Shown: positions 3,119 through 53,490 of the stretch, one piece after another
Layout of the letters: the number at the start of each line of letters is the position of its first letter
How positions within the stretch are numbered: position 1 is the first letter of the stretch
DNA from: Patescibacteria group bacterium
Lineage (GTDB): Bacteria > Patescibacteriota > Patescibacteriia > Veblenbacterales > UBA10138
Direction: 5' to 3'
Assembly (NCBI GenBank): GCA_018817715.1
Contig: JAHITT010000004.1
Location: 19,751 to 83,750 of the forward strand
DNA: 64,000 nucleotides
Translations under genes and position numbers: made by a program
Notes under the pieces: model-generated
Told to the model about the DNA's origin: nothing
Database searches by the model: none
What the model saw: the letters and a program-made list of their open reading frames with translations, nothing else

Positions 3119-5416
3119 TTATTTTAATTCACAAGCACCGCTAATGCAGGCTAATTCTTTGGAACCCTGGGTTTCGTCATCATATTCGTAAGTTACTATT
3201 TTAGCAAAATCAATGTCAGGAAAATTCTTAACCAATTCTTCATAAGCTTCTTTGGTTATTTCCTCATAAGGCGCCAACTGATAAACATGCTCGTCTCGAG
3301 GCAAAAAAGACAAACCGCCCACCATTTCCCAATTCTCATAAACCCAGTTGCCTACCTTAAGCCAATCATCGCCGCCGACCGATATGGTAACTGACGGGTT
3401 ATGTTCAGTATAATTAATTTTTAAATTTTTCCAATGACCCAACAATTTCATAGCGGAAATATCACGCCTGACTATGGCCCCCTCGGGCGCTTTAATGGGA
3501 AATTCCAAAACATAAGTACTGGCTGTATCGGGTGACTGACCGACTTCGGGTTGATAAGGCACACCCATATCCTTAAGCATCAAAAATAAAGGGTTATGTC
3601 GTTCCACTCTAACTCGCCTAATATAATAAGGCGCGTGCCTGGGATGCATACCAGACGAAGAATCAAACAATTGTGAACCATTACCCGACGGCTTAACACA
3701 AGTTACGGCCGCCGAAGGATTAATACCGAATTTTTTAGCATATTCTTGATTTACTTTTACAGCCTCCTCGCGTAATTTTTTTAAAACCTCTTCTTGTCGT
3801 ACCGCCGGACAATCCCACTGACCAGTAATAGAAACTCCTAACAAAGCCTCGTCCTGGCAATTTTTTAACCAGTCCTTGGATAAATAAGGAAAATTCATCA
3901 AACTGGCTTGATAAGTTCCCAAAATAGTAGCCAGGCGAACTTTTCTTAATAAAGTTTCCTCGGTATCCTCGATCCGGGCCACTACTTCAGATAAATTACA
4001 AAACTGCTTAGATTTTAAAATAATTTCGCCACAAGGATTGGTACCGGAAGTGTGCATATCCGGAGCAAAAATCGGCCAACGTCTTTTGGGCAACTGTTTT
4101 TCCAAACTACCTCGATTAAATATACCCCGCTCGCCCGAGCCAGACTTCATAATATTTATCCACTCTTCCAAAAATTGGCTTAACTCCGGCTTAGTGTTAT
4201 AAGTCGCTGAGTTGTTGGCCATAGCTCTTTCCGGATGTTTTAAATAAAATTGACCGTCTTTGGCGTGACGCATTTCTAAATCATCCAAATCGGACAAAGA
4301 AATCAAAGCCGAACGCCTAACCCCACCCATTACCACTACCTCACCAATTTTACAAATTATATCGTGAGCATCTAAAGTGGTTAATCTTCTACCTTGGCGT
4401 TCCATCATTCTAGCGCGCACAAACTTCATTAAAGAAATTAAAGGTCCGGGGCCAGAAGCTCGTCCGCCCATTGTTTTAAGCCTAGCACCTTGTGGCCTAA
4501 TAGCAGAATAATCAAACTCAATATCTTGACCTTTAGACCAAGTAACCAAACCTAAGGCCAAAGCGTTACTCCAACCTTCTTTACTGTCTTCCACTAAATA
4601 CTTGGGTAATTTTTGGCCACCTTGCCTCTGAATAATGGGTAATTGCTCCACCGTCTGCCTTTCCACCGAAAAACCTACACCAGTACCACACATCAATACA
4701 TACATTATCTCAGCAAAATCCTGCCAAGCCTTGGGAGCGATAAAAGAACAATTATAAGCGCAAACATTAGTAGCTCGGGCCGCTTCACCAGCTCCCCACA
4801 AAAGACGCATTGAACCCAAAGCTTCCATATTACGAATACCCTCTCTAATCTCATCGTACTCAACTGTACTTAACTTATCTCCCAAATTTTCCCGCATAAA
4901 CCCAACATAACGATCAACTGTTTCCATCCAAGTTTCGCGTCGAGCTTTCTCTGGCAACCACCTGGAATAAGTACTGTAAAAAACATATTCCGAAAGTTGA
5001 TTACGAAAATATTTTTTACTAGTCTGAGCCAAATCTTTAACTTCTTGAGGTACTTCTGGACGATGACGTCTTAAATGCGCATGCTCTTCCCGGTAAACAA
5101 TATAAGCCCGAGCTGTTTTAAGCCACTTGGAACGCATTAATACCAATTCCACTATATCCTGAACCTGCTCGACTGTCGGTGTAGTGTGACCGTCATAAAT
5201 TTGTTCCAACTCCTCCGCCACTCTAAAAGCCAACCTAGCTGCTTCGGGCCGGCCGAATTCTCCTGTTTCTTTACCTGATTTAAAAATAGCCTCCACTATT
5301 TTAGTAGGATCAAACTCCACCGTCCGACCGTCACGTTTTATTATACGACTAAGTTTCAACTTGTTATTAGTTGTAGTAGTGGCGGTTGATTTAACAGACG
5401 AAGAGGTGTTAGGCAT
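3119..5416 (-). CDS. nrdJ: Ribonucleotide reductase, probably adenosylcobalamin-dependent class II (NrdJ) with N-terminal ATP-cone
   Basis: ATP-cone (KLSRIIKRDGRTVEFDPTKI), catalytic NPCGEI, C-terminal CISGAC redox pair. No beta-subunit gene nearby. PduO and B12-uptake genes are adjacent. Confidence 0.75.
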   Translation of the reverse strand: MPNTSSSVKSTATTTTNNKLKLSRIIKRDGRTVEFDPTKIVEAIFKSGKETGEFGRPEAARLAFRVAEELEQIYDGHTTPTVEQVQDIVELVLMRSKWLKTARAYIVYREEHAHLRRHRPEVPQEVKDLAQTSKKYFRNQLSEYVFYSTYSRWLPEKARRETWMETVDRYVGFMRENLGDKLSTVEYDEIREGIRNMEALGSMRLLWGAGEAARATNVCAYNCSFIAPKAWQDFAEIMYVLMCGTGVGFSVERQTVEQLPIIQRQGGQKLPKYLVEDSKEGWSNALALGLVTWSKGQDIEFDYSAIRPQGARLKTMGGRASGPGPLISLMKFVRARMMERQGRRLTTLDAHDIICKIGEVVVMGGVRRSALISLSDLDDLEMRHAKDGQFYLKHPERAMANNSATYNTKPELSQFLEEWINIMKSGSGERGIFNRGSLEKQLPKRRWPIFAPDMHTSGTNPCGEIILKSKQFCNLSEVVARIEDTEETLLRKVRLATILGTYQASLMNFPYLSKDWLKNCQDEALLGVSITGQWDCPAVRQEEVLKKLREEAVKVNQEYAKKFGINPSAAVTCVKPSGNGSQLFDSSSGMHPRHAPYYIRRVRVERHNPLFLMLKDMGVPYQPEVGQSPDTASTYVLEFPIKAPEGAIVRRDISAMKLLGHWKNLKINYTEHNPSVTISVGGDDWLKVGNWVYENWEMVGGLSFLPRDEHVYQLAPYEEITKEAYEELVKNFPDIDFAKIVTYEYDDETQGSKELACISGACELK

Positions 5417-35262: not shown

Positions 35263-35337
35263 CGCGGGGTGGAGAAGTGGCATCTCGCCTGGCTCATAAC
35301 CAGGAGATCGCGGGTTCAAGTCCCGCCCCCGCAACCA
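35263..35337 (+). tRNA. tRNA-Met (anticodon CAT), probably the initiator (C1xA72 mismatch)
   Basis: 5' CGCGGGG / 3' CCCCGCA-A-CCA gives a C1-A72 mismatch. Anticodon loop CTCATAA. T-arm GCGGGTTCAAGTCCCGC. Confidence 0.75.
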
Positions 35338-35471
35338 AGCACCACTCGCTCTTTCTAAGAGCTTCGGATGCTTGGCAAGCCAAATCATTAATGATAAGGC
35401 CTGCCATAAGTGTTTATAAGGGAGAGTGATGCTTGCAGTGAACCCATAGTGGTTCACTGTTATCAAATACA

Positions 35472-35756
35472 ATGACAAAGTCTTTTTATTACGTTTACGT
35501 ATTACTAAGCCTTAAAGATAGAAGGTTTTATATTGGTTTAACCAGTAATTTAAAGAAAAGATTTACTGACCATAATAAGGGCAGAAATATATCAACGGCA
35601 GGGCGTTTACCTTTCCAATTAATATTCTATGAATCCTTTTTAGATAAAATCGATGCCCTGCGTCGGGAAAGATATTTTAAAACCAGCAAAGGTAAAATAA
35701 CTTTACGATTAATGTTAAAAGAATATTTGTTAAGGCAGGGTAGCTCAGTTGGTTAG
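35472..35756 (+). CDS. GIY-YIG nuclease family protein
   Basis: YYVYVLLSLKDRRFYIGLTSNLKKRFTDHNKG matches the GIY-YIG core. The 3' end overlaps the following tRNA. Confidence 0.7.
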   Translation: MTKSFYYVYVLLSLKDRRFYIGLTSNLKKRFTDHNKGRNISTAGRLPFQLIFYESFLDKIDALRRERYFKTSKGKITLRLMLKEYLLRQGSSVG

Positions 35757-35810
35757 AGCGAGGGACTCATAAGCCCTAGGCCGTGGGTTCGATCCCCACC
35801 CCTGCTACCA
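35734..35810 (+). tRNA. tRNA with CAT anticodon (elongator Met or Ile2-lysidine)
   Basis: GGCAGGGTAGCTCAGTTGGTTAGAGC D-arm, anticodon loop CTCATAA, GGTTCGATCC T-arm, 3' CCCTGCTACCA. Confidence 0.75.
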
Positions 35811-36424: not shown

Positions 36425-37702
36425 CTAGGGTTTATACAAATTGCGCGGAAAAAATATGTTCCAGGTCCACTCCCAAGCCACCTGAATTTTTTTGCGCCCA
36501 GATAATAATTTGCTTAAATAAACTGTCCGCCACAACCACCAGGCTACTGGCCCTTCAAAAAACCAATTGCCTATTTCGGCCAAGGCTAGCCACTGGCCCA
36601 GGGAAACTAAATTGCCTTTGGATTTATAAACAAATTCCTTAAGCGGCTTATTTTTACGCTCCGCCCATAAATTATGGGCGGTAATTTTAGCCTGCCCAAC
36701 CGCCACCTGAGCCAGCTGTGGCAATAACTTATTAGTCTCCTTGTCCAGCAAAGCCGCGCTATCACCCAACACATAAACATTGGAATAATTAAACAATTGC
36801 AAATTAGATTGTATTTTTATTCGGCCGTTATTAACCATATCTAAATCACCTTGCCAAGCAATGGCTACTGGTTTTACCCCGGCTAACCAAATAACCAACT
36901 GACTGTTTATAAATTCACCAGACTTTAATTGTAAGCCAACCTGGTTAACCAAAGTAACTTCGGAATTAAATTTTATACTAACTCCTTGGGCAGTTAGTTT
37001 CTGCCTGGCCTGCTGACCAAACCTAGGGCTAAACTCTTTTAACAATTCCGAGCCGCGTTGCACTAAAATTATTTTTATCTTAGCGGCTAAAGCCGGATAC
37101 AGTTTAACTACTGTGCCTTTTACCAAATGGCTTAATTCCGCCGCCATTTCCACGCCGGTCGGTCCGCCGCCCACTATAACCCAAGTCAAAAGTTTTTCCA
37201 GCTTTAATTGTTGCTGGCTATCCTCCCATAAATTAGTAGCCTGCTCCAAATTAGCTATCAGCTGATTTTTTATAGCTAAAGCCTCAGCCAAAGTTTTTAA
37301 AGGCCAACTATTTTCTAAAGCACCCGACACTTTAAACCAATTAGTCCTAGTACCGGGCGCCACTACTAAATAATCATAAACCAAGGACCGGCCGGCTTTA
37401 GTAACTACTTGGCGACTGTCTAAATTTACAGTTTTAACTTCGTCTAAAATTATTTTTATGTTAGCCGGAAATTTATTTCTTAACGGCTCTACCACATTAC
37501 CAGCCGACAAACTACCAGCGGCCACTTCATGAAGCAATGGCGTAAACAAAAAATAATTAACCGACGTTATTAAACTTATATCAAAATCTGGCCAGCCACC
37601 TTGTTTTTTTAAATACCATAGACTATATAAACCAGCAAAACCACTACCAATTATTAACAACCGAGGTTTAGTTAATCTACCTGGATTAATCATAGTCCCC
37701 AT
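36425..37702 (-). CDS. ndh: FAD/NAD(P)-binding oxidoreductase, type II NADH dehydrogenase-like
   Basis: Two Rossmann motifs, IIGSGFAGL and VIVGGGPTGVEMAAEL. Confidence 0.7.
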   Translation of the reverse strand: MGTMINPGRLTKPRLLIIGSGFAGLYSLWYLKKQGGWPDFDISLITSVNYFLFTPLLHEVAAGSLSAGNVVEPLRNKFPANIKIILDEVKTVNLDSRQVVTKAGRSLVYDYLVVAPGTRTNWFKVSGALENSWPLKTLAEALAIKNQLIANLEQATNLWEDSQQQLKLEKLLTWVIVGGGPTGVEMAAELSHLVKGTVVKLYPALAAKIKIILVQRGSELLKEFSPRFGQQARQKLTAQGVSIKFNSEVTLVNQVGLQLKSGEFINSQLVIWLAGVKPVAIAWQGDLDMVNNGRIKIQSNLQLFNYSNVYVLGDSAALLDKETNKLLPQLAQVAVGQAKITAHNLWAERKNKPLKEFVYKSKGNLVSLGQWLALAEIGNWFFEGPVAWWLWRTVYLSKLLSGRKKIQVAWEWTWNIFFPRNLYKP

Positions 37703-37765
37703 TATAAACTATAAGCCCCTTATCGTGCTATAATAAATCTACTAAGTTTTAACCAAACTAAGCCT

Positions 37766-38665
37766 ATGTTAAAAAATATGTTAAGTAAAAAAAATCTCTG
37801 GCTGGCAGCCTTGGTTTTATTAACAACTGGTTTTCTAGTACCTTTTTTCAGCCAAGCCAGTGAAGAAGCTGTAACCACCGAAGCGGAAAATGTTATTATT
37901 TCCGAACAAGATGCCCCCTTAGTTAGGCAAGCTAAATTAAAGCAAGCCTGGGTTATTTATCGTGAAGTAGGCAGTCAGGATATTTATGCCTTAACCAAAA
38001 ATAAAACTAAACGAGCTATTAAAACTTTAGATTTTTTTACCGCCTATAATGCTAATTATCATCTAAAAGTAGTAGCTAAAGATCGCCTAACTGCTTACGC
38101 CACAGCCGAACCAATTAACTCGGAAACAATTTTAAATCCCGAAGATTTTATTAAAGCTGGCTGGCACTGGCGCTTAATTAAGGCCCAGGGCGACCCGGCT
38201 GTTTATTTGTTAGCCCCCGACGGAACTAAAAAACCAATCTTAGCTGAAGGAGTTTTCCACCGTTTCGGTTGGGAATTCAGAGACGTAGAAGAATTAACCA
38301 AAGAAGCTGTGGCTGCCCTGCCGACCGGCACCACCATTACCGACAATACTTTATTTGACGAAGAAATAATTGTTAGTTCCACCAACCAACGTTTAGAAAA
38401 AGAAACCTTACAAAAAAGACTGGAACTAAAAGGCAAGACTCAAGTAAAAACCCGTTTAATAAAAGCTATCGGTGATAACAAAGTCTATGTAATGGACGGC
38501 CAAGGCAATAAACATTTAGTAACCAATGAAAAAGCCGCTCAGAAATTTAAACTTAATTTTAAAAATATTACCGAAGTAACGGCCCAAGAACTTAAAGCTC
38601 TACCATTAGGCGGCCAAATTAACGAAACAACCACTTCAGTTAATTTAGAACAAATTATTAAATAA
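37766..38665 (+). CDS. Hypothetical secreted protein
   Basis: Signal peptide. Followed by a terminator hairpin at about 38673-38705. Confidence 0.5.
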   Translation: MLKNMLSKKNLWLAALVLLTTGFLVPFFSQASEEAVTTEAENVIISEQDAPLVRQAKLKQAWVIYREVGSQDIYALTKNKTKRAIKTLDFFTAYNANYHLKVVAKDRLTAYATAEPINSETILNPEDFIKAGWHWRLIKAQGDPAVYLLAPDGTKKPILAEGVFHRFGWEFRDVEELTKEAVAALPTGTTITDNTLFDEEIIVSSTNQRLEKETLQKRLELKGKTQVKTRLIKAIGDNKVYVMDGQGNKHLVTNEKAAQKFKLNFKNITEVTAQELKALPLGGQINETTTSVNLEQIIK

Positions 38666-38705
38666 TTTCTTACTCCTTACCAACTCCGTCCTGTTACCAG
38701 GGCGG

Positions 38706-38764
38706 AGTTTTTAAATTAAAAAAATAAATGTGCTATAATAGCCAAACTATGTTATTAAAAAAGA
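38706..38764 (+). repeat. Copy 1 of a 57-bp direct repeat carrying an extended -10 promoter (TGcTATAAT) and a leaderless ATG
   Basis: Near-identical to 41054-41112, with 2 mismatches. Confidence 0.7.
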
Positions 38765-38775
38765 TTTTGATATTG

Positions 38776-38850
38776 CAAATATAAATTACCAGAAGTATTA
38801 AAACTGTCATACTAATAAAAAGTGATTCCCTCATTAGTTTTTTAGGTTTT
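38776..38850 (-). pseudogene. Decayed fragment of the internal repeat of the adjacent 643-aa surface-protein gene
   Basis: attgcaaatataaattaccagaagtattaaa...aaaagtgattccctcattagtttttt aligns with 40600-40680 and 40214-40270. The minus-strand reading NEGITFY*YDSFNTSGNLYLQ contains a stop. Confidence 0.6.
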
Positions 38851-39059
38851 ATATAGCCTTTGCCGTTCTTAACTTACTAATGTTAATAATTATTTGGATT
38901 GGCAGGTTGGCGCTTAAAATGTTATTTTAAAATTTCCGACCACTTCTTAATCTCTCCAATAATATCCTTCAAATTTTCGGAAACATCAGACTTTAAGACT
39001 ACTTTATAAAAACAACTCAATCATTGAGTTGTTTTTATAATTTAGTTTAAATTTTATAT

Positions 39060-40991
39060 TTATCTACTCGCTCCCGAATAAGTAATCGCTTGCATTATAT
39101 TCCAATCTTCAGTAGAACTTGGTGTATGCCCGTAAATAGCTTTAAAGATCTTGATGCCGTTAGTTTCACTATTCAAATTCCTATTCTCAGCTTTTTGTCT
39201 AAGACCATAAGCCATAACAGTCACAGCTGCGTTATCATTGGCATTGCTCATATCAGCTACTCTTTTGTAGATCTTTTGAAATTGTTCTTTAGCTTTGTTC
39301 TCAGCCCCTTGATTAGTAATACTTGGCCAACGACCGTTAGCGATTTTAATGGCGTCAGTTAATTCCTCTTCTGTCTCTGGCAATTTATTAAAAGCGTTCT
39401 TATAAGAATACATAACTGCTGCTCTTTCGCCGGCTCCTAATTTTTGAGTGTTTGTATCTGCCCCATAAGTAATAAAACTATTTATGGCCGTTTCCATTTT
39501 AGCTGATAACTTTTCAACATTATTAGTTAAGTTTTCAAAATACTTAATTTTAGTTGCCTGCTCTTTAACAATATCTCTTAACTGTTTAAGTTCCGCTAAT
39601 ACCTCGCTTAATTTATCATCATACAGTCTATTAGCACTAACAGCCGCTTCGGTTATTTTAATAGTCGGTTTTATTATTTCGTTAGCAGTATCAGGGGCTA
39701 AAACCGGACTATCTGTCCCAGGATAGTTTTTATCAATTGTTATTATACCTGAATAATTATTATTGGATTCATTTAATTCATCTAACTCATTTCCATTATC
39801 TACAGTATATTCGAGATAATAATTATTAATTTTAGTAAATTTACCCAACCAAAGGCGAGAAATTGACTCGCCGGGCATTAAAGGATAGTCCGTTGTCGGC
39901 AATGGTCTATTAGTCTTCAAACTAACTATTGGGGTTTCAGAGTTAAATAAAAAGTTTTGATTAGATAAATTGAAGTATGTATTTAATAGACCCTTAGAAC
40001 TAGTTAGTAGTGCCGTGCCATTATTTTTAATAGTAACTGAGATTGTTCCAACTTGGTTAGCATAATTTGTAGAAAAAGTAATACCAGTAACTGTTAAATC
40101 TGGTTTTTTATCAACATTATTAATCGAATCATTAATAACAATTGATTTTGAAAGAGTGTTGTTATTTTCATTTGATTCATCTAATTCGTTAGCGTTATCA
40201 ATTGTAAACTGAAGATATAAATTACCAGAAGTATTAAATTTTCCTACCCAAGAAAAAGTGATTGACTCCTCCTTTTTTAAAGGGTTCGAAATGGTTGGAT
40301 CTGGACGATTAGCACGGTAAGCAAGAATCGAGGGTGTTTCACTACTAAAAATAAAGTTTTGTGCCGATAGATTATTATACCAATTAAATAATCCTTGGCC
40401 GCTAGTTAGATCCCCGCCTAAATTTTTAACCGTTACGGATAGTGTTCCGTTTTCATTTTTTACAGATGAACTGAAGTTTATATTTGTTACAGTTAAATCT
40501 GGTTTAGAAATAATCGCACCGATCGAAATACTGACGCTTAAACTATTGTTATTCTCGTTGGTCTCCACCAACTCATTAGCATTATCGACTGTATATTGTA
40601 AATATAAATTACCAGAAGTATTAAATTTTCCTACCCAAGAAAAAGTGATTGACTCATTAGTTTTTAATGGATTATTGGTTGAAAGATCCGGCAGAGCTCT
40701 ATCAGTTTTAAATTGAGTAGCTGAAGGAGTTGAGCTATCAAAGACAAAATTTTGAAAACTAAAATTATTGTAAGTGTTAAGTAGGCCTGCAGTGTTGTTT
40801 AAATCACCACCTAAATTTTTTATAGTAACTGCTAATTTTCCGGTTTCTCCCTGTTGGGAGCCAGAAAAAGTAATACCAGTAACCGTTAAATCCGGGTTGC
40901 CTGTTTCGGCTTGAGTTTTTGTAGCAAAAAAGAAACCGCAAACCCCAAAAATTATAAATAACACCGAAACCGACTTTTTAAAATTAAACAT
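39060..40991 (-). CDS. Secreted surface protein with three tandem ~130-aa Ig/CARDB-like repeats, coiled-coil region and a C-terminal domain
   Basis: Signal peptide. Repeat unit KPDLTVTGITFS...SITFSWVGKFNTSGNLYLQ(Y/F)T(V/I)DNANEL occurs three times. Terminator hairpin at 39008-39037. Confidence 0.6.
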   Translation of the reverse strand: MFNFKKSVSVLFIIFGVCGFFFATKTQAETGNPDLTVTGITFSGSQQGETGKLAVTIKNLGGDLNNTAGLLNTYNNFSFQNFVFDSSTPSATQFKTDRALPDLSTNNPLKTNESITFSWVGKFNTSGNLYLQYTVDNANELVETNENNNSLSVSISIGAIISKPDLTVTNINFSSSVKNENGTLSVTVKNLGGDLTSGQGLFNWYNNLSAQNFIFSSETPSILAYRANRPDPTISNPLKKEESITFSWVGKFNTSGNLYLQFTIDNANELDESNENNNTLSKSIVINDSINNVDKKPDLTVTGITFSTNYANQVGTISVTIKNNGTALLTSSKGLLNTYFNLSNQNFLFNSETPIVSLKTNRPLPTTDYPLMPGESISRLWLGKFTKINNYYLEYTVDNGNELDELNESNNNYSGIITIDKNYPGTDSPVLAPDTANEIIKPTIKITEAAVSANRLYDDKLSEVLAELKQLRDIVKEQATKIKYFENLTNNVEKLSAKMETAINSFITYGADTNTQKLGAGERAAVMYSYKNAFNKLPETEEELTDAIKIANGRWPSITNQGAENKAKEQFQKIYKRVADMSNANDNAAVTVMAYGLRQKAENRNLNSETNGIKIFKAIYGHTPSSTEDWNIMQAITYSGASR

Positions 40992-41053
40992 AAATTTTAT
41001 TATTTTTAACTAATAATGTTGTAATAATGTATCACAAATATTCTTAAATGTCA

Positions 41054-41112
41054 AATTTTTAAACTAAAAAAATAAATGTGCTATAATAGCCAAACTATGC
41101 TATTAAAAAATA
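41054..41112 (+). repeat. Copy 2 of the 57-bp promoter/start repeat (native promoter of the downstream carboxypeptidase gene)
   Basis: See 38706-38764. Confidence 0.7.
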
Positions 41113-42017
41113 AATTTTTTCTTGTTTTATTGCTAATTGGTCTTAACTTAGCGCCTATTCACGTAGTGGCTCAATCCACTATTAATAAAAATTCTTCTTA
41201 TCAAGATTTTGGCGCTTGGTATCAAAAAAATTATAAGCTTAAAGCCTTGCCTTTTCGGGCCGTAGCTCTAATAGATGCCCAAACCTTGCAACCACTATAC
41301 TATTACCAAGAAAGCACGACCATGCCCACAGCCAGCTTAATGAAAATGCTGGCGGCGGGCGCCTTTTTAAGCTATGGCTCACCAGATTGGTTTAAATTGG
41401 TGGATTTAACTGAACAAGAAAACGAAACTCTTTTACGGCCTTATGTGGAACCTAAAGATAATTTTGCCTTGCTACGATTAAAAGCTGGAGAAAAAATAAG
41501 CTTAGAACAAGCTTTTGCCACTATGCTCATGGGTTCAGCCAACAACATTGCTGTAGCTTTGCCTCGTTATTTGGGTATCAGCCGGACTGATTTTATCAAC
41601 CGCATGCAACAAACTGCCCTAAATTGGGGTATGAACCAAACAATTGTGGATGAACCCAGTGGTTTATCTTTAAACAATGTTTCTTCAGCCAAAGATTTAG
41701 CCCTAGGCACCTGCCAGGCTTTTGGTAATTTTATGACCAGCTATTATGGTAGCCAACCTTACCTAACTTACGATACCGATATTAAAACCCACAAAATCAT
41801 TAGTCACACGGTGCATGATGTTAGAAATTATTCTCAAAAATACTGGGGAGCTAAAACCGGTTACTTAAGAGAAACACAATATCATTTAGCCGCCGGTGTT
41901 ATAACGCCTCAGGGTCGTAAACTGTGCTTAACTGTTTTAACCTCGCCCAGTCGCGCCCTGTCCGAACAAACCGGCGAAGCTTTACGACAATGGGCGGATA
42001 AAATGTATCAATGGTAA
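41076..42017 (+). CDS. D-alanyl-D-alanine carboxypeptidase (peptidase S11 / PBP-like); true start plausibly the second ATG at 41097 (leaderless)
   Basis: SxxK (ASLMK), SxN (GSANN), KTG (GAKTGY). Signal peptide begins at MLLKNKFFLVLLLIG. Confidence 0.7.
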   Translation: MCYNSQTMLLKNKFFLVLLLIGLNLAPIHVVAQSTINKNSSYQDFGAWYQKNYKLKALPFRAVALIDAQTLQPLYYYQESTTMPTASLMKMLAAGAFLSYGSPDWFKLVDLTEQENETLLRPYVEPKDNFALLRLKAGEKISLEQAFATMLMGSANNIAVALPRYLGISRTDFINRMQQTALNWGMNQTIVDEPSGLSLNNVSSAKDLALGTCQAFGNFMTSYYGSQPYLTYDTDIKTHKIISHTVHDVRNYSQKYWGAKTGYLRETQYHLAAGVITPQGRKLCLTVLTSPSRALSEQTGEALRQWADKMYQW

Positions 42018-51813: not shown

Positions 51814-51888
51814 TCCGGGGTAGCTCAGTGGTAGAGCAGTTGGCTGTTAACCAATTGGTCGTGGGTTCGAGTCCCACCCCCGGAGCCA
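51814..51888 (+). tRNA. tRNA-Asn (anticodon GTT), CCA encoded; likely integration site
   Basis: TCCGGGGTAGCTCAGTGGTAGAGC...CTGTTAA...GGGTTCGAGTCCCACCCCCGGAGCCA. Confidence 0.85.
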
Positions 51889-53490
51889 GATAGGATTAAC
51901 ATCAGCGAAAGCTGGTGTTTTTCCTTTATTGACGGGCTCTTTTGGCGGTTCGAAAGTCTTTTTTTCGTCTATTTTTTCTCCCAACATCTCGATTACTCGG
52001 TTAGAGATGATTTTGAAGGCTTTCTGGTATGAAATCTCGATTTTCTTGCCATTTATGGTCGGGTTCGAAAATAAAAGGGACAATAATACTTTTTTGTCGT
52101 CGACCATGTCGAAGGTGCTTCGGTTTATGTAAATCTTTCTTGCATCCTTGGCCATTTGGAGAAATGTCGATCCCATATCGTAATACTTAAGGTTGGCATT
52201 TTTATGCTTGTTGAGGCTGTCCATCACTTCCTCCTGCTCAATCTTGTATTGCTGGTACTTTTTCTGATAGAAGTCCTCGCTGATTTTGCCGTCGATCTTG
52301 TCGTCATATATTTTATCTAGTCTCTGCGTGGCTACCTGGTAGCGTCGCTCGAGTTCGCCGGTAGCCTTTTCCCTGAATTCTATCTCCTCACCGTGGCTTT
52401 CCTTGAGAGCCTCTTGGACCCAAGTGAGCATATTCTCTATGGCTTCATCGTGATTAGAGCTCAAGAGCTCGATATTCTCCGTTACTTGTATATCGATATT
52501 TTCTTGCTTCACCCATTCTCTTTGTTTGCAATTTTTGTAATGGTTGCAGTGACCGTACCAATGACCTTTCTGTATCTCCCAAGTTATCCGACCCTTGCAT
52601 TCGTCACAGTGGAAGATGTTTTTGAACAGTGGGTTGTGCTTGTTATATTTTGGCGTCCCGTTGCTATGCATGATATCTTGGCACCGCATGAATAATTCTT
52701 TGGTGATCAGTGGCTCGTGTTCACCTTTGCCAACTTTGCCGTTCCAACGATTCATTCCGTAATAGAATGGATCACCGAGAAGCTGGTGGACTCGCGAGTG
52801 ACTCACTTTGTTGCCTCCTCGAGATCGCATACCGAGCCTGTACATTTCATCGGCAAGTTTCTTGGTCGAGCTTACGTTGGTGGCATAGAGGTCAAACATT
52901 TTCTTAACCATCGGTGCTTTGTCCTCATCTATCACATGGATTTTATGTCCTTTCTCACCAATCGTTTTATATCCGAGTGGTGGTTTGCTCGGCAACCATC
53001 CTTGAGCGAGTTTTTCTTTCTGGCCTTTCTTTACGTTTTCGGACAAAAGGCGGATGTAATATTCGGCCGTGGCCACTTTCACTCGCCACATAAACCATTC
53101 ATGCGACTTGGAGTCTTTGTGAAGCGTACATCCTTCTTTGACCAAGTGGATCGTATGCTTTTCGTCCGCTAGTATCCATTCGTCAATTACCGGCACATCG
53201 GCAAAATTACGGGTCAGGCGATCGGTTGTCTCCACGAAGACTGTATTGATCTTGGACTTGGTCACGTATTCCAACATTTCGTGAAATATTTTGCGCTGGA
53301 TTTTTCCAGCGGCCGACTCCTGAATGGCAAAAACCTTTACGAGCTCGTAGCCGTTGCGGTCGGCGTAGTCTCGCAAAAGTTTCTCTTGAGCCGGAAGCGA
53401 ATAGCCGGTGTCCTCCTGATCTTTGGAAGACACCCGGGCGTAGCCTACGGCTTGCATCGATTGATTTTCTTGATTCATTGTCATAATCAT
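51847..53490 (-). CDS. Large serine recombinase (resolvase-type catalytic domain, recombinase domain, zinc ribbon)
   Basis: AVGYARVSSKDQ catalytic Ser motif. The C-terminal 14 codons are read through the tRNA-Asn 3' half (…GWDSNPRPIG). Confidence 0.85.
   Translation of the reverse strand: MIMTMNQENQSMQAVGYARVSSKDQEDTGYSLPAQEKLLRDYADRNGYELVKVFAIQESAAGKIQRKIFHEMLEYVTKSKINTVFVETTDRLTRNFADVPVIDEWILADEKHTIHLVKEGCTLHKDSKSHEWFMWRVKVATAEYYIRLLSENVKKGQKEKLAQGWLPSKPPLGYKTIGEKGHKIHVIDEDKAPMVKKMFDLYATNVSSTKKLADEMYRLGMRSRGGNKVSHSRVHQLLGDPFYYGMNRWNGKVGKGEHEPLITKELFMRCQDIMHSNGTPKYNKHNPLFKNIFHCDECKGRITWEIQKGHWYGHCNHYKNCKQREWVKQENIDIQVTENIELLSSNHDEAIENMLTWVQEALKESHGEEIEFREKATGELERRYQVATQRLDKIYDDKIDGKISEDFYQKKYQQYKIEQEEVMDSLNKHKNANLKYYDMGSTFLQMAKDARKIYINRSTFDMVDDKKVLLSLLFSNPTINGKKIEISYQKAFKIISNRVIEMLGEKIDEKKTFEPPKEPVNKGKTPAFADVNPIWLRGWDSNPRPIG

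Follow-up and report, generated by a model that had tools for sequence, protein, structure and literature searches.

How did the promoter and start codon of a carboxypeptidase gene come to lie on both sides of a surface protein gene in a Patescibacterium? The locus belongs to a 64-kb window (39.0% G+C; the whole stretch of DNA analyzed, to which all positions refer) within a 251,903-bp ENA metagenome contig (ERZ27247128 k141_1622344), whose proteins carry the name "Patescibacteria group bacterium" in public sources. In this window, a D-Ala-D-Ala carboxy/endopeptidase gene of the Peptidase_S11 family (the S11 gene) is separated from its upstream neighbor, a gene for a 299-amino-acid (aa) secreted protein, by an insert that carries a gene for a protein with CARDB domains, and the sequence that heads the S11 gene recurs at the far end of the insert. 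The arrangement probably arose through the insertion of a linear foreign fragment by illegitimate, possibly homology-facilitated, recombination with a target duplication of 48 to 55 bp.

The duplicated promoter and start

Self-alignment of the window defines a direct repeat of 55 bp, with copy 1 at positions 38708 to 38762 and copy 2 at positions 41056 to 41110 (both on the plus strand), and the two copies are identical at 53 of the 55 positions. The mismatches (38716/41064 and 38752/41100) are both T versus C and leave exact runs of 8, 35, and 10 nucleotides (nt). A search for a 34-nt core of the repeat that allowed as many as 3 mismatches gave exactly two hits in the 64 kb against a shuffle expectation of 0.00, and the repeat is no chance match. 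A first-pass annotation of this DNA had described a promoter-plus-start duplication of 57 bp; the duplication and its two copies are real, but exact alignment shortens it to 55 bp. Both copies hold the promoter elements TTTAAA-18 nt-TG-c-TATAAT and, 9 nt further, an ATG. Copy 1 is an orphan version that extends through the ATG and the next 11 nt, and its duplicated start codon opens a dead open reading frame (ORF) of 11 codons (MLLKKILILQI*, 38749 to 38784, plus strand), just as the first reading had it. The initial 14 nt of this frame match the start of the S11 gene at 13 positions, and the remainder consists of junction and relic sequence.

The S11 gene itself (41097 to 42017, plus strand) encodes 306 aa and matches PF00768 with 72.8 bits, above the Pfam cutoff of 27.6; all NCBIfam equivalogs score far under their cutoffs, and the assignment is one of family membership only. 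Its closest orthologues, 83% and 81% identical, lie in GCA_049319925.1 (locus L003) and GCA_964619435.1 (locus L012). In both, TGTGCTATAATA precedes the S11 gene with the ATG about 8 to 9 nt downstream, and from TGTGCTATAATA on into the coding region copy 2 is orthologous to and colinear with these loci. A more distant orthologue (L011) has TGTGCTATACT (TATACT), followed after 8 nt by the ATG. By this orthology, copy 2 is the native extended -10 promoter and start of the S11 gene, in agreement with the earlier annotation. The gap of 8 to 9 nt between the -10 box and the ATG is kept in the window, L003, L012, and L011, and no Shine-Dalgarno (GGAG-type) motif is present; because of this short, conserved gap and the absent motif, the S11 mRNA is probably leaderless or near-leaderless, and the earlier proposal of a leaderless start fits all four loci. 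Among the approximately 50 window genes of at least 100 aa, a GGAG-type motif stands upstream of the start in only a handful, and in several a TGnTATAAT box lies no more than 20 nt from the ATG. Shine-Dalgarno-poor or leaderless initiation seems to be common in this genome.

It is extremely improbable that the duplication is an assembly error or a chimera of two strains. Although the source is a metagenome contig, its name gives a final assembler k-mer of 141, longer than the 55-bp repeat, and the two copies are not identical, differing at two sites. The same gene order recurs in an independent second assembly (a 251,707-bp contig of an NCBI metagenome-assembled genome [MAG]), with the 299-aa and CARDB genes as adjacent tags KKC17_01810 and KKC17_01815. 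Furthermore, a Logan contig (L002) begins exactly at position 41070, the start of the leftmost 31-mer that includes the copy-2-specific base 41100. With the Logan k-mer size of 31, a contig break at this point is what a genuine second copy predicts for a read set that holds both. Copy 1 is a pitfall both for annotation and for short-k assemblers.

Contents and source of the insert

The copies were first described as flanking only the surface protein gene, but the insert (38763 to 41055) also contains that gene's promoter, a bidirectional terminator, an 81-nt element, a 69-nt spacer, and the relic of a second CARDB gene. The CARDB gene (39060 to 40991, minus strand) is the sole real ORF of the insert. 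Like other CARDB surface proteins (PF07705), its 643-aa product has a signal peptide followed by three tandem CARDB domains (E = 1.8e-30, 105.5 bits against a cutoff of 22.7, in three stretches with a period of 387 to 399 nt); unlike them, it ends in a Patescibacteria-specific C-terminal domain of about 210 aa. This domain is modeled with moderate confidence as all-helical (predicted local distance difference test score, 72), and it has no Pfam family, no fold match in the PDB, and no significant hit in a PDB sequence search. The C-terminal domain (residues 434 to 643; 39063 to 39692, minus strand) is also the most conserved part of the protein, with 55 to 79% identity across more than 40 metagenome loci, in which varied N-terminal domains are attached to it. 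The gene has a sigma-70-type promoter (TTGACA-17-TACATT with TG; 41026 to 41054, minus strand) that stands back to back with copy 2. Its mRNA is predicted to end at a bidirectional hairpin terminator of 17 pairs (39004 to 39040, inverted repeat I2).

At the left end of the insert, copy 1 is followed by a filler of 7 nt (GATTTTG, 38763 to 38769) that matches neither the S11 nor the CARDB genes in the junction alignments and then by the CARDB relic (38770 to 38852, minus strand), which spans some 24 domain 1 codons with a single TAG among them. Over positions 38770 to 38842 (extendable to 38852), the relic has the same orientation as the CARDB gene and is 86.5% identical to positions 40593 to 40665; its translation, KTNEGITFY*YDSFNTSGNLYLQY, begins 7 nt past copy 1. 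Its alignment to domain 1 of the cassette relatives L009 (87.7%) and L008 is ungapped, with a TGG-to-TAG nonsense difference, whereas alignment to domain 1 of the resident gene requires gaps. On the strength of these alignments, the relic is derived from a different CARDB paralogue, and the best interpretation is that the incoming DNA was broken at this end. The first-pass annotation was thus correct that a stop-containing relic lies just inside copy 1, but not in assigning it to the internal repeat of the resident gene. The spacer that follows (38853 to 38921, 69 nt) has no detectable homologue, with no match among 93 loci or elsewhere in the window.

Next to the spacer lies the 81-nt element (38922 to 39002, minus strand; GTAGTC...TAA, frame VVLKSDVSENLKDIIGEIKKWSEILK*), which occurs only once in the window, downstream of the CARDB gene, as opposed to L008 (942 to 1022, 2253 to 2333, and 4665 to 4745) and L009 (7831 to 7911 and 9601 to 9681), where it flanks the CARDB gene on both sides. 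Its conservation begins abruptly at GTAGTC, each time directly after a different terminator hairpin. The open frame of the element (VVLKSEIYQNFNEIIGEIEKWAEILG*) has no start codon; frame and stop are kept in four of the six copies, and the variable columns (10/5/15 by codon position) form a coding-like substitution pattern. No RNA fold of the element is supported (-7.8 kcal/mol, covariation of -0.14). The element may be the far-end junction of serine-recombinase elements. No recombinase was found with the 81-nt tail as its native C terminus, and a reconstructed protein had no relative among viral contigs. When the 32-aa window peptide of the element served as query in a representative search, only ORFs of 32 and 39 aa were found, and no long protein ends in this way.

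The closest relative of the cassette, L008 (ENA ERZ27247363 k141_1810936; the JGI locus L014 is the same contig), encodes a protein 91% identical to that of the window, and its DNA is 87.4% identical over positions 39028 to 41066 (2,039 nt). The next closest, L009, lies on a 911-kb contig and has 77 to 83% nucleotide identity. Both keep the TTGACATTT box of the CARDB promoter, and the neighborhoods of both are unrelated to the window locus; in L008, the CARDB gene belongs to an array that also contains a large serine recombinase, a REP protein, two DNA methyltransferases, and relics of tRNA 3' ends. The cassette has a G+C content of 31.8%, compared with 39.0% for the window and 37.8 to 40.6% for the neighboring genes, and its G+C content at third codon positions is 0.25, compared with 0.31 to 0.39 in the neighbors. 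The 64-kb window contains no further CARDB paralogue, a result that lends no support to the ongoing expansion or contraction of paralogous repeat genes that had been offered as an alternative. Together, the contexts in L008 and L009, the low G+C content, the single-copy 81-nt element, and the lack of a paralogue in the window favor horizontal acquisition of the cassette from a lineage where mobile DNA carries the gene. The donor lineage is not placeable, as neither L008 nor L009 has housekeeping genes in common with the window. Searches of metagenome contigs and GTDB genomes recovered no donor sequence with the cassette beside an S11 gene, and the insert had no matches in phage, plasmid, or viral collections, including viral contigs.

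Empty sites, junctions, and the route of insertion

The cassette is absent from this site in all five related loci (L003, L012, L005, L013, and L011), which bears out the first proposal that a surface protein cassette was inserted at the 5' end of the carboxypeptidase gene. NDH2 directly adjoins S11 in L003 and L012, and the order is NDH2-DoxX-S11 in L005 (63% identical). In L013, which has the closest homologue of the 299-aa protein (60%), a YdjM-like gene, the 299-aa gene, a terminator, a promoter, and S11 follow one another on one strand with nothing intervening, and L011 has the same adjacent pair. Of the sites available, the 299-aa/S11 pair of these two loci serves best as an empty site. 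The 299-aa gene of the window (37766 to 38665, plus strand) ends in an intrinsic terminator (38682 to 38709, plus strand; a 12-pair stem with 7 G-C pairs and then TTTAAATT) whose T-tract forms the opening bases of copy 1. Copy 1 abuts the terminator exactly as an undisturbed intergenic region would, and copy 2 abuts S11. Given these native-like flanks and the adjacent pair in relatives, the copies would be the two halves of one original intergenic region of 84 nt, duplicated over 48 to 55 bp. The copies differ by 2 substitutions in 55 bp, far less than the nucleotide divergence of about 21% between the S11 genes of the window and L003, a difference that dates the insertion to long after the window lineage parted from its nearest known relatives. 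A search with the promoter pattern found nothing in JGI metagenome contigs and only the MAG of L003 among GTDB genomes, with no strain variants.

The two junctions differ in character. On the right, homology to L008 and L009 passes through the CARDB -35 box and stops at positions 41063 to 41066, just inside copy 2. The first 7 nt of copy 2 (TTTTTAA, 41056 to 41062) are common to the cassette relatives and to the terminator T-tract in copy 1, forming a 7-nt microhomology joint; since the cassette relatives share these leftmost bases, the true target duplication is 48 to 55 bp. On the left, S11 sequence ends after base +14, 7 unmatched nt follow, and the relic starts in the middle of a CARDB domain. 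The insert contains no recombinase or transposase ORF and has no terminal inverted repeats (score of 16, below the shuffle mean of 18.2), so that it lacks both marks of an insertion sequence or transposon. Nor does it have the features of an integron cassette, having neither a supported fold in the 81-nt element nor a recombinase ORF (the screen for an IntI-type integrase was confined to the insert). What the locus does show is an insert missing from the corresponding site of relatives, with microhomology, filler, and truncation at its junctions. Illegitimate joining is favored because recombinase, transposase, and inverted repeats are all lacking and because the core of the related units is not at the junctions.

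The steps of such an insertion can be outlined as follows. The original intergenic region would have been compact, consisting of the terminator hairpin, its T-tract, an A-rich stretch, TGcTATAAT, 9 nt, and the ATG. A linear foreign fragment of about 2.3 kb (approximately 38763 to 41055) would then have entered between the 299-aa and S11 genes. Its cargo would have been an entire CARDB adhesin gene, together with the promoter and terminator of that gene, plus a mobile-element junction of 81 nt and the broken end of a second CARDB paralogue. The ends of the fragment would have joined the chromosome at staggered points 48 to 55 bp apart, the right end through the TTTTTAA microhomology at about -42 of the promoter and the left end after S11 base +14 with 7 nt of filler, so that the promoter plus the first 14 nt of S11 now lie on both sides. 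The joining may have occurred across sister copies at a replication fork or by homology-facilitated illegitimate recombination anchored in S11. Because the terminator T-tract and the promoter overlap, only an insertion that duplicates the module could leave both neighbors functional, and this overlap plausibly explains why so unusual an outcome survived.

Homology-facilitated or double illegitimate recombination has been described before (de Vries & Wackernagel 2002; Prudhomme et al. 2002; Meier & Wackernagel 2003, cited in PMC5361080). The present case resembles it in the integration of a linear foreign fragment without site-specific machinery, in having microhomology at one junction and filler with a broken end at the other, and in a possible anchor in the conserved S11 gene. 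It differs in its 48- to 55-bp target duplication, where deletion or replacement is the commoner outcome. The process is not known from Patescibacteria, and the donor-side anchor is here hypothetical.

Several points weigh against the insertion of a foreign fragment by illegitimate recombination. A target duplication of 48 to 55 bp is unusual for simple illegitimate insertion, and an extra event is needed to account for the sequence lost between the relic and the 81-nt element. The closest S11 relative is only 83% identical, and the preinsertion sequence is therefore inferred rather than observed; L003 and L012 also lack the 299-aa gene, such that the empty site is found only in the distant L013 and L011, whose intergenic sequences are not alignable. 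The low G+C content could partly reflect a protein composition rich in Asn, Ser, and Thr, and with 64 of the approximately 252 kb of the contig inspected, the cassette could have an intragenomic source.

The repeats might instead be the attL and attR attachment sites of a site-specific integrative element that entered the 5' end of S11 and brought a replacement promoter plus start, its recombinase since lost or acting in trans. As with integrative elements that rebuild the end of their target gene (e.g., tRNA 3' ends), direct repeats of host sequence bound the insert exactly and the target gene is intact; moreover, relatives of the cassette occur in stacked units beside large serine recombinases at tRNA genes, and the window has such a recombinase at tRNA-Asn (51847 to 53490). 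That gene, however, is the nearest one and lies 10 kb off, with no recombinase within or beside the insert, and the core of the related units (GTAGTC, tRNA 3' end) is at neither junction but inside the insert. The truncated gene fragment plus filler on the left and the 7-nt microhomology on the right are characteristic of illegitimate joining. The sequence that is repeated belongs to the host and has orthologues in L003 and L012, and the repeat is found nowhere else in the 64 kb. Integration through attachment sites is accordingly unlikely. Gene turnover at the site is improbable as well. It would posit two tandem CARDB genes between the 299-aa gene and S11, of which the second decayed, followed by a templated repair or gene-conversion patch that brought a copy of the S11 promoter and start to the deletion scar. 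Downstream of the resident gene there is indeed the relic of a second paralogue, separated from it by the 81-nt element, and this element precedes a CARDB promoter in L008 and L009. Turnover would nonetheless still require a prior insertion, as relatives have no CARDB gene at the site, along with an additional, unselected patch of 55 bp; copy 1 meets the 299-aa terminator as a native intergenic region would, and no further CARDB paralogues exist in the window.

With the insertion of a foreign fragment as the preferred reading, the present locus would work as follows. Copy 2 would drive S11, the CARDB gene would be transcribed divergently from its own promoter, and the 299-aa gene would retain its terminator. 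Copy 1 would be an orphan promoter whose only possible products are the 11-aa peptide and an RNA of about 290 nt that stops at the 39004 to 39040 hairpin. Copy 1 might instead be maintained for a function, driving a small regulatory RNA or the 11-aa peptide or serving in a switch for reversible, phase-variation-like adhesin loss. Its hexamers and ATG are intact, only 2 of the 55 positions differ, and a terminator lies about 290 nt downstream; but a recent event explains the high identity equally well, the RNA made from copy 1 would be composed of filler from the junction, a piece of pseudogene, and the 81-nt element in antisense, the region has no Rfam match, and no relative has a homologous arrangement, making a maintained function very improbable. 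Precise loss of the cassette by RecA-mediated recombination through the 35-nt identical core of the repeats, which the first reading had proposed, is plausible as a rare event.

Neighboring genes, related units, and significance

The 299-aa protein has no Pfam or NCBIfam match. Upstream of its gene, positions 37726 to 37777 are the best nonself match to the repeat in the window (score of 37.5 versus a background maximum of 29.5, a score reached by 0 of 2,000 shuffles), and TGCTATAAT occurs only three times in the 64 kb, always at this locus. An older, third copy of the S11 promoter was considered here and rejected. The series TGCTATAAT...TACTAA...AAGCCTATG also precedes a homologue of the 299-aa gene in L095, far from any S11 gene, and because this homologue carries the segment without an S11 neighbor, positions 37726 to 37777 are the own promoter of the 299-aa gene, which is kept together with its leader in L095.

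This promoter is paired with that of NDH2 (36425 to 37702, minus strand). Back-to-back -10 boxes with conserved spacing (ATTATAAACYAT-N13-TGCTATAAT) lie at positions 37690 to 37740 of the window, 1645 to 1700 of L003, and 62 to 115 of L012. In L003 and L012, the NDH2 -10 box is 7 nt from the ATG; in the window, the box points to the second ATG (37693) as the true start of NDH2, again probably leaderless. The divergent promoter is predicted to drive S11 in L003 and L012 and the 299-aa gene in the window. Either recombination between two TGCTATAATA boxes may have removed the 299-aa gene from L003 and L012, or the gene may be a gain of the window. Farther upstream, a gene for a 94-aa GIY-YIG protein (35472 to 35756) lies between two tRNA-Met genes (35263 to 35810), and the same small GIY-YIG gene occurs at the corresponding place in L005.

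The relatives of the cassette offer a view of mobile DNA at tRNA genes. Positions 2036 to 2215, 4429 to 4625, and 10824 to 12353 of L008 and 10353 to 10400 of L009 cover relics of tRNA 3' ends (GTAGTCCCTAGGGGAATT), each relic followed by a GC-rich stretch of about 170 nt within the AT-rich locus, and the large serine recombinase of L008, whose last 12 codons (VVPRGIEPLLTG*) are the antisense of a tRNA gene. The apparent stacked, cassette-like units comprise one with SpoU, one with the CARDB gene, and a 7.6-kb unit with the REP protein and two methyltransferases. In the window, a 547-aa large serine recombinase (XisF/CcrB-like; 51847 to 53490, minus strand) likewise ends in the antisense of a tRNA, inside tRNA-Asn (...GWDSNPRPIG*), and the G+C content rises from about 0.31-0.38 to 0.43-0.48 from 52 kb on to the window end (64000). 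The region of positions 51814 to 53490 and on to 64000 probably represents an integrated element at tRNA-Asn.

These units raise the idea, improbable as it stands, that the cassette is one unit of an undescribed Patescibacterial cassette system and that the 55-bp-flanked insertion was its off-target or secondary capture. A unit would then consist of a GTAGTC core, the 81-nt tail as the remnant of a recombinase C terminus, one cargo gene, and a terminator hairpin, an equally doubtful composition. As tentatively, such units would be stacked beside tRNA genes and moved by large serine recombinases whose 3' end crosses the attachment core. If this were true, the repeats could permit reversible gain and loss of a surface adhesin. 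This lead, which points outside the window to the stacked units beside serine recombinases at the tRNA genes of L008 and L009, is the chief added value of the locus.

The insertion also has a parallel in the orphan arrays that arise by successive insertions at Rhs, contact-dependent inhibition, and type VI secretion effector-immunity loci (PMC5361080, which also describes homology-facilitated illegitimate recombination). In both, a duplicated piece of a constant region and an orphan fragment stand beside a new gene. In those arrays, the constant region is coding sequence of the same family, and the arrays are built by successive displacement, with toxin tips or immunity genes as the orphans; here, the constant region is the promoter plus start of an unrelated neighbor, and one event is documented. 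It is an event of a known kind, the insertion of a foreign gene with target duplication, and opens no new category; the duplicated promoter is a tidy but ordinary scar of gene acquisition. The leaderless promoter-plus-start module, at about 50 bp, is small enough to be duplicated in a single event, and a duplicating insertion into an intergenic region with zero slack keeps both neighbors intact, while the repeats would provide a built-in route to precise loss of the gene. The locus presents a clean, datable case of a genome-reduced, uncultured Patescibacterium gaining a surface adhesin gene without dedicated mobile machinery.

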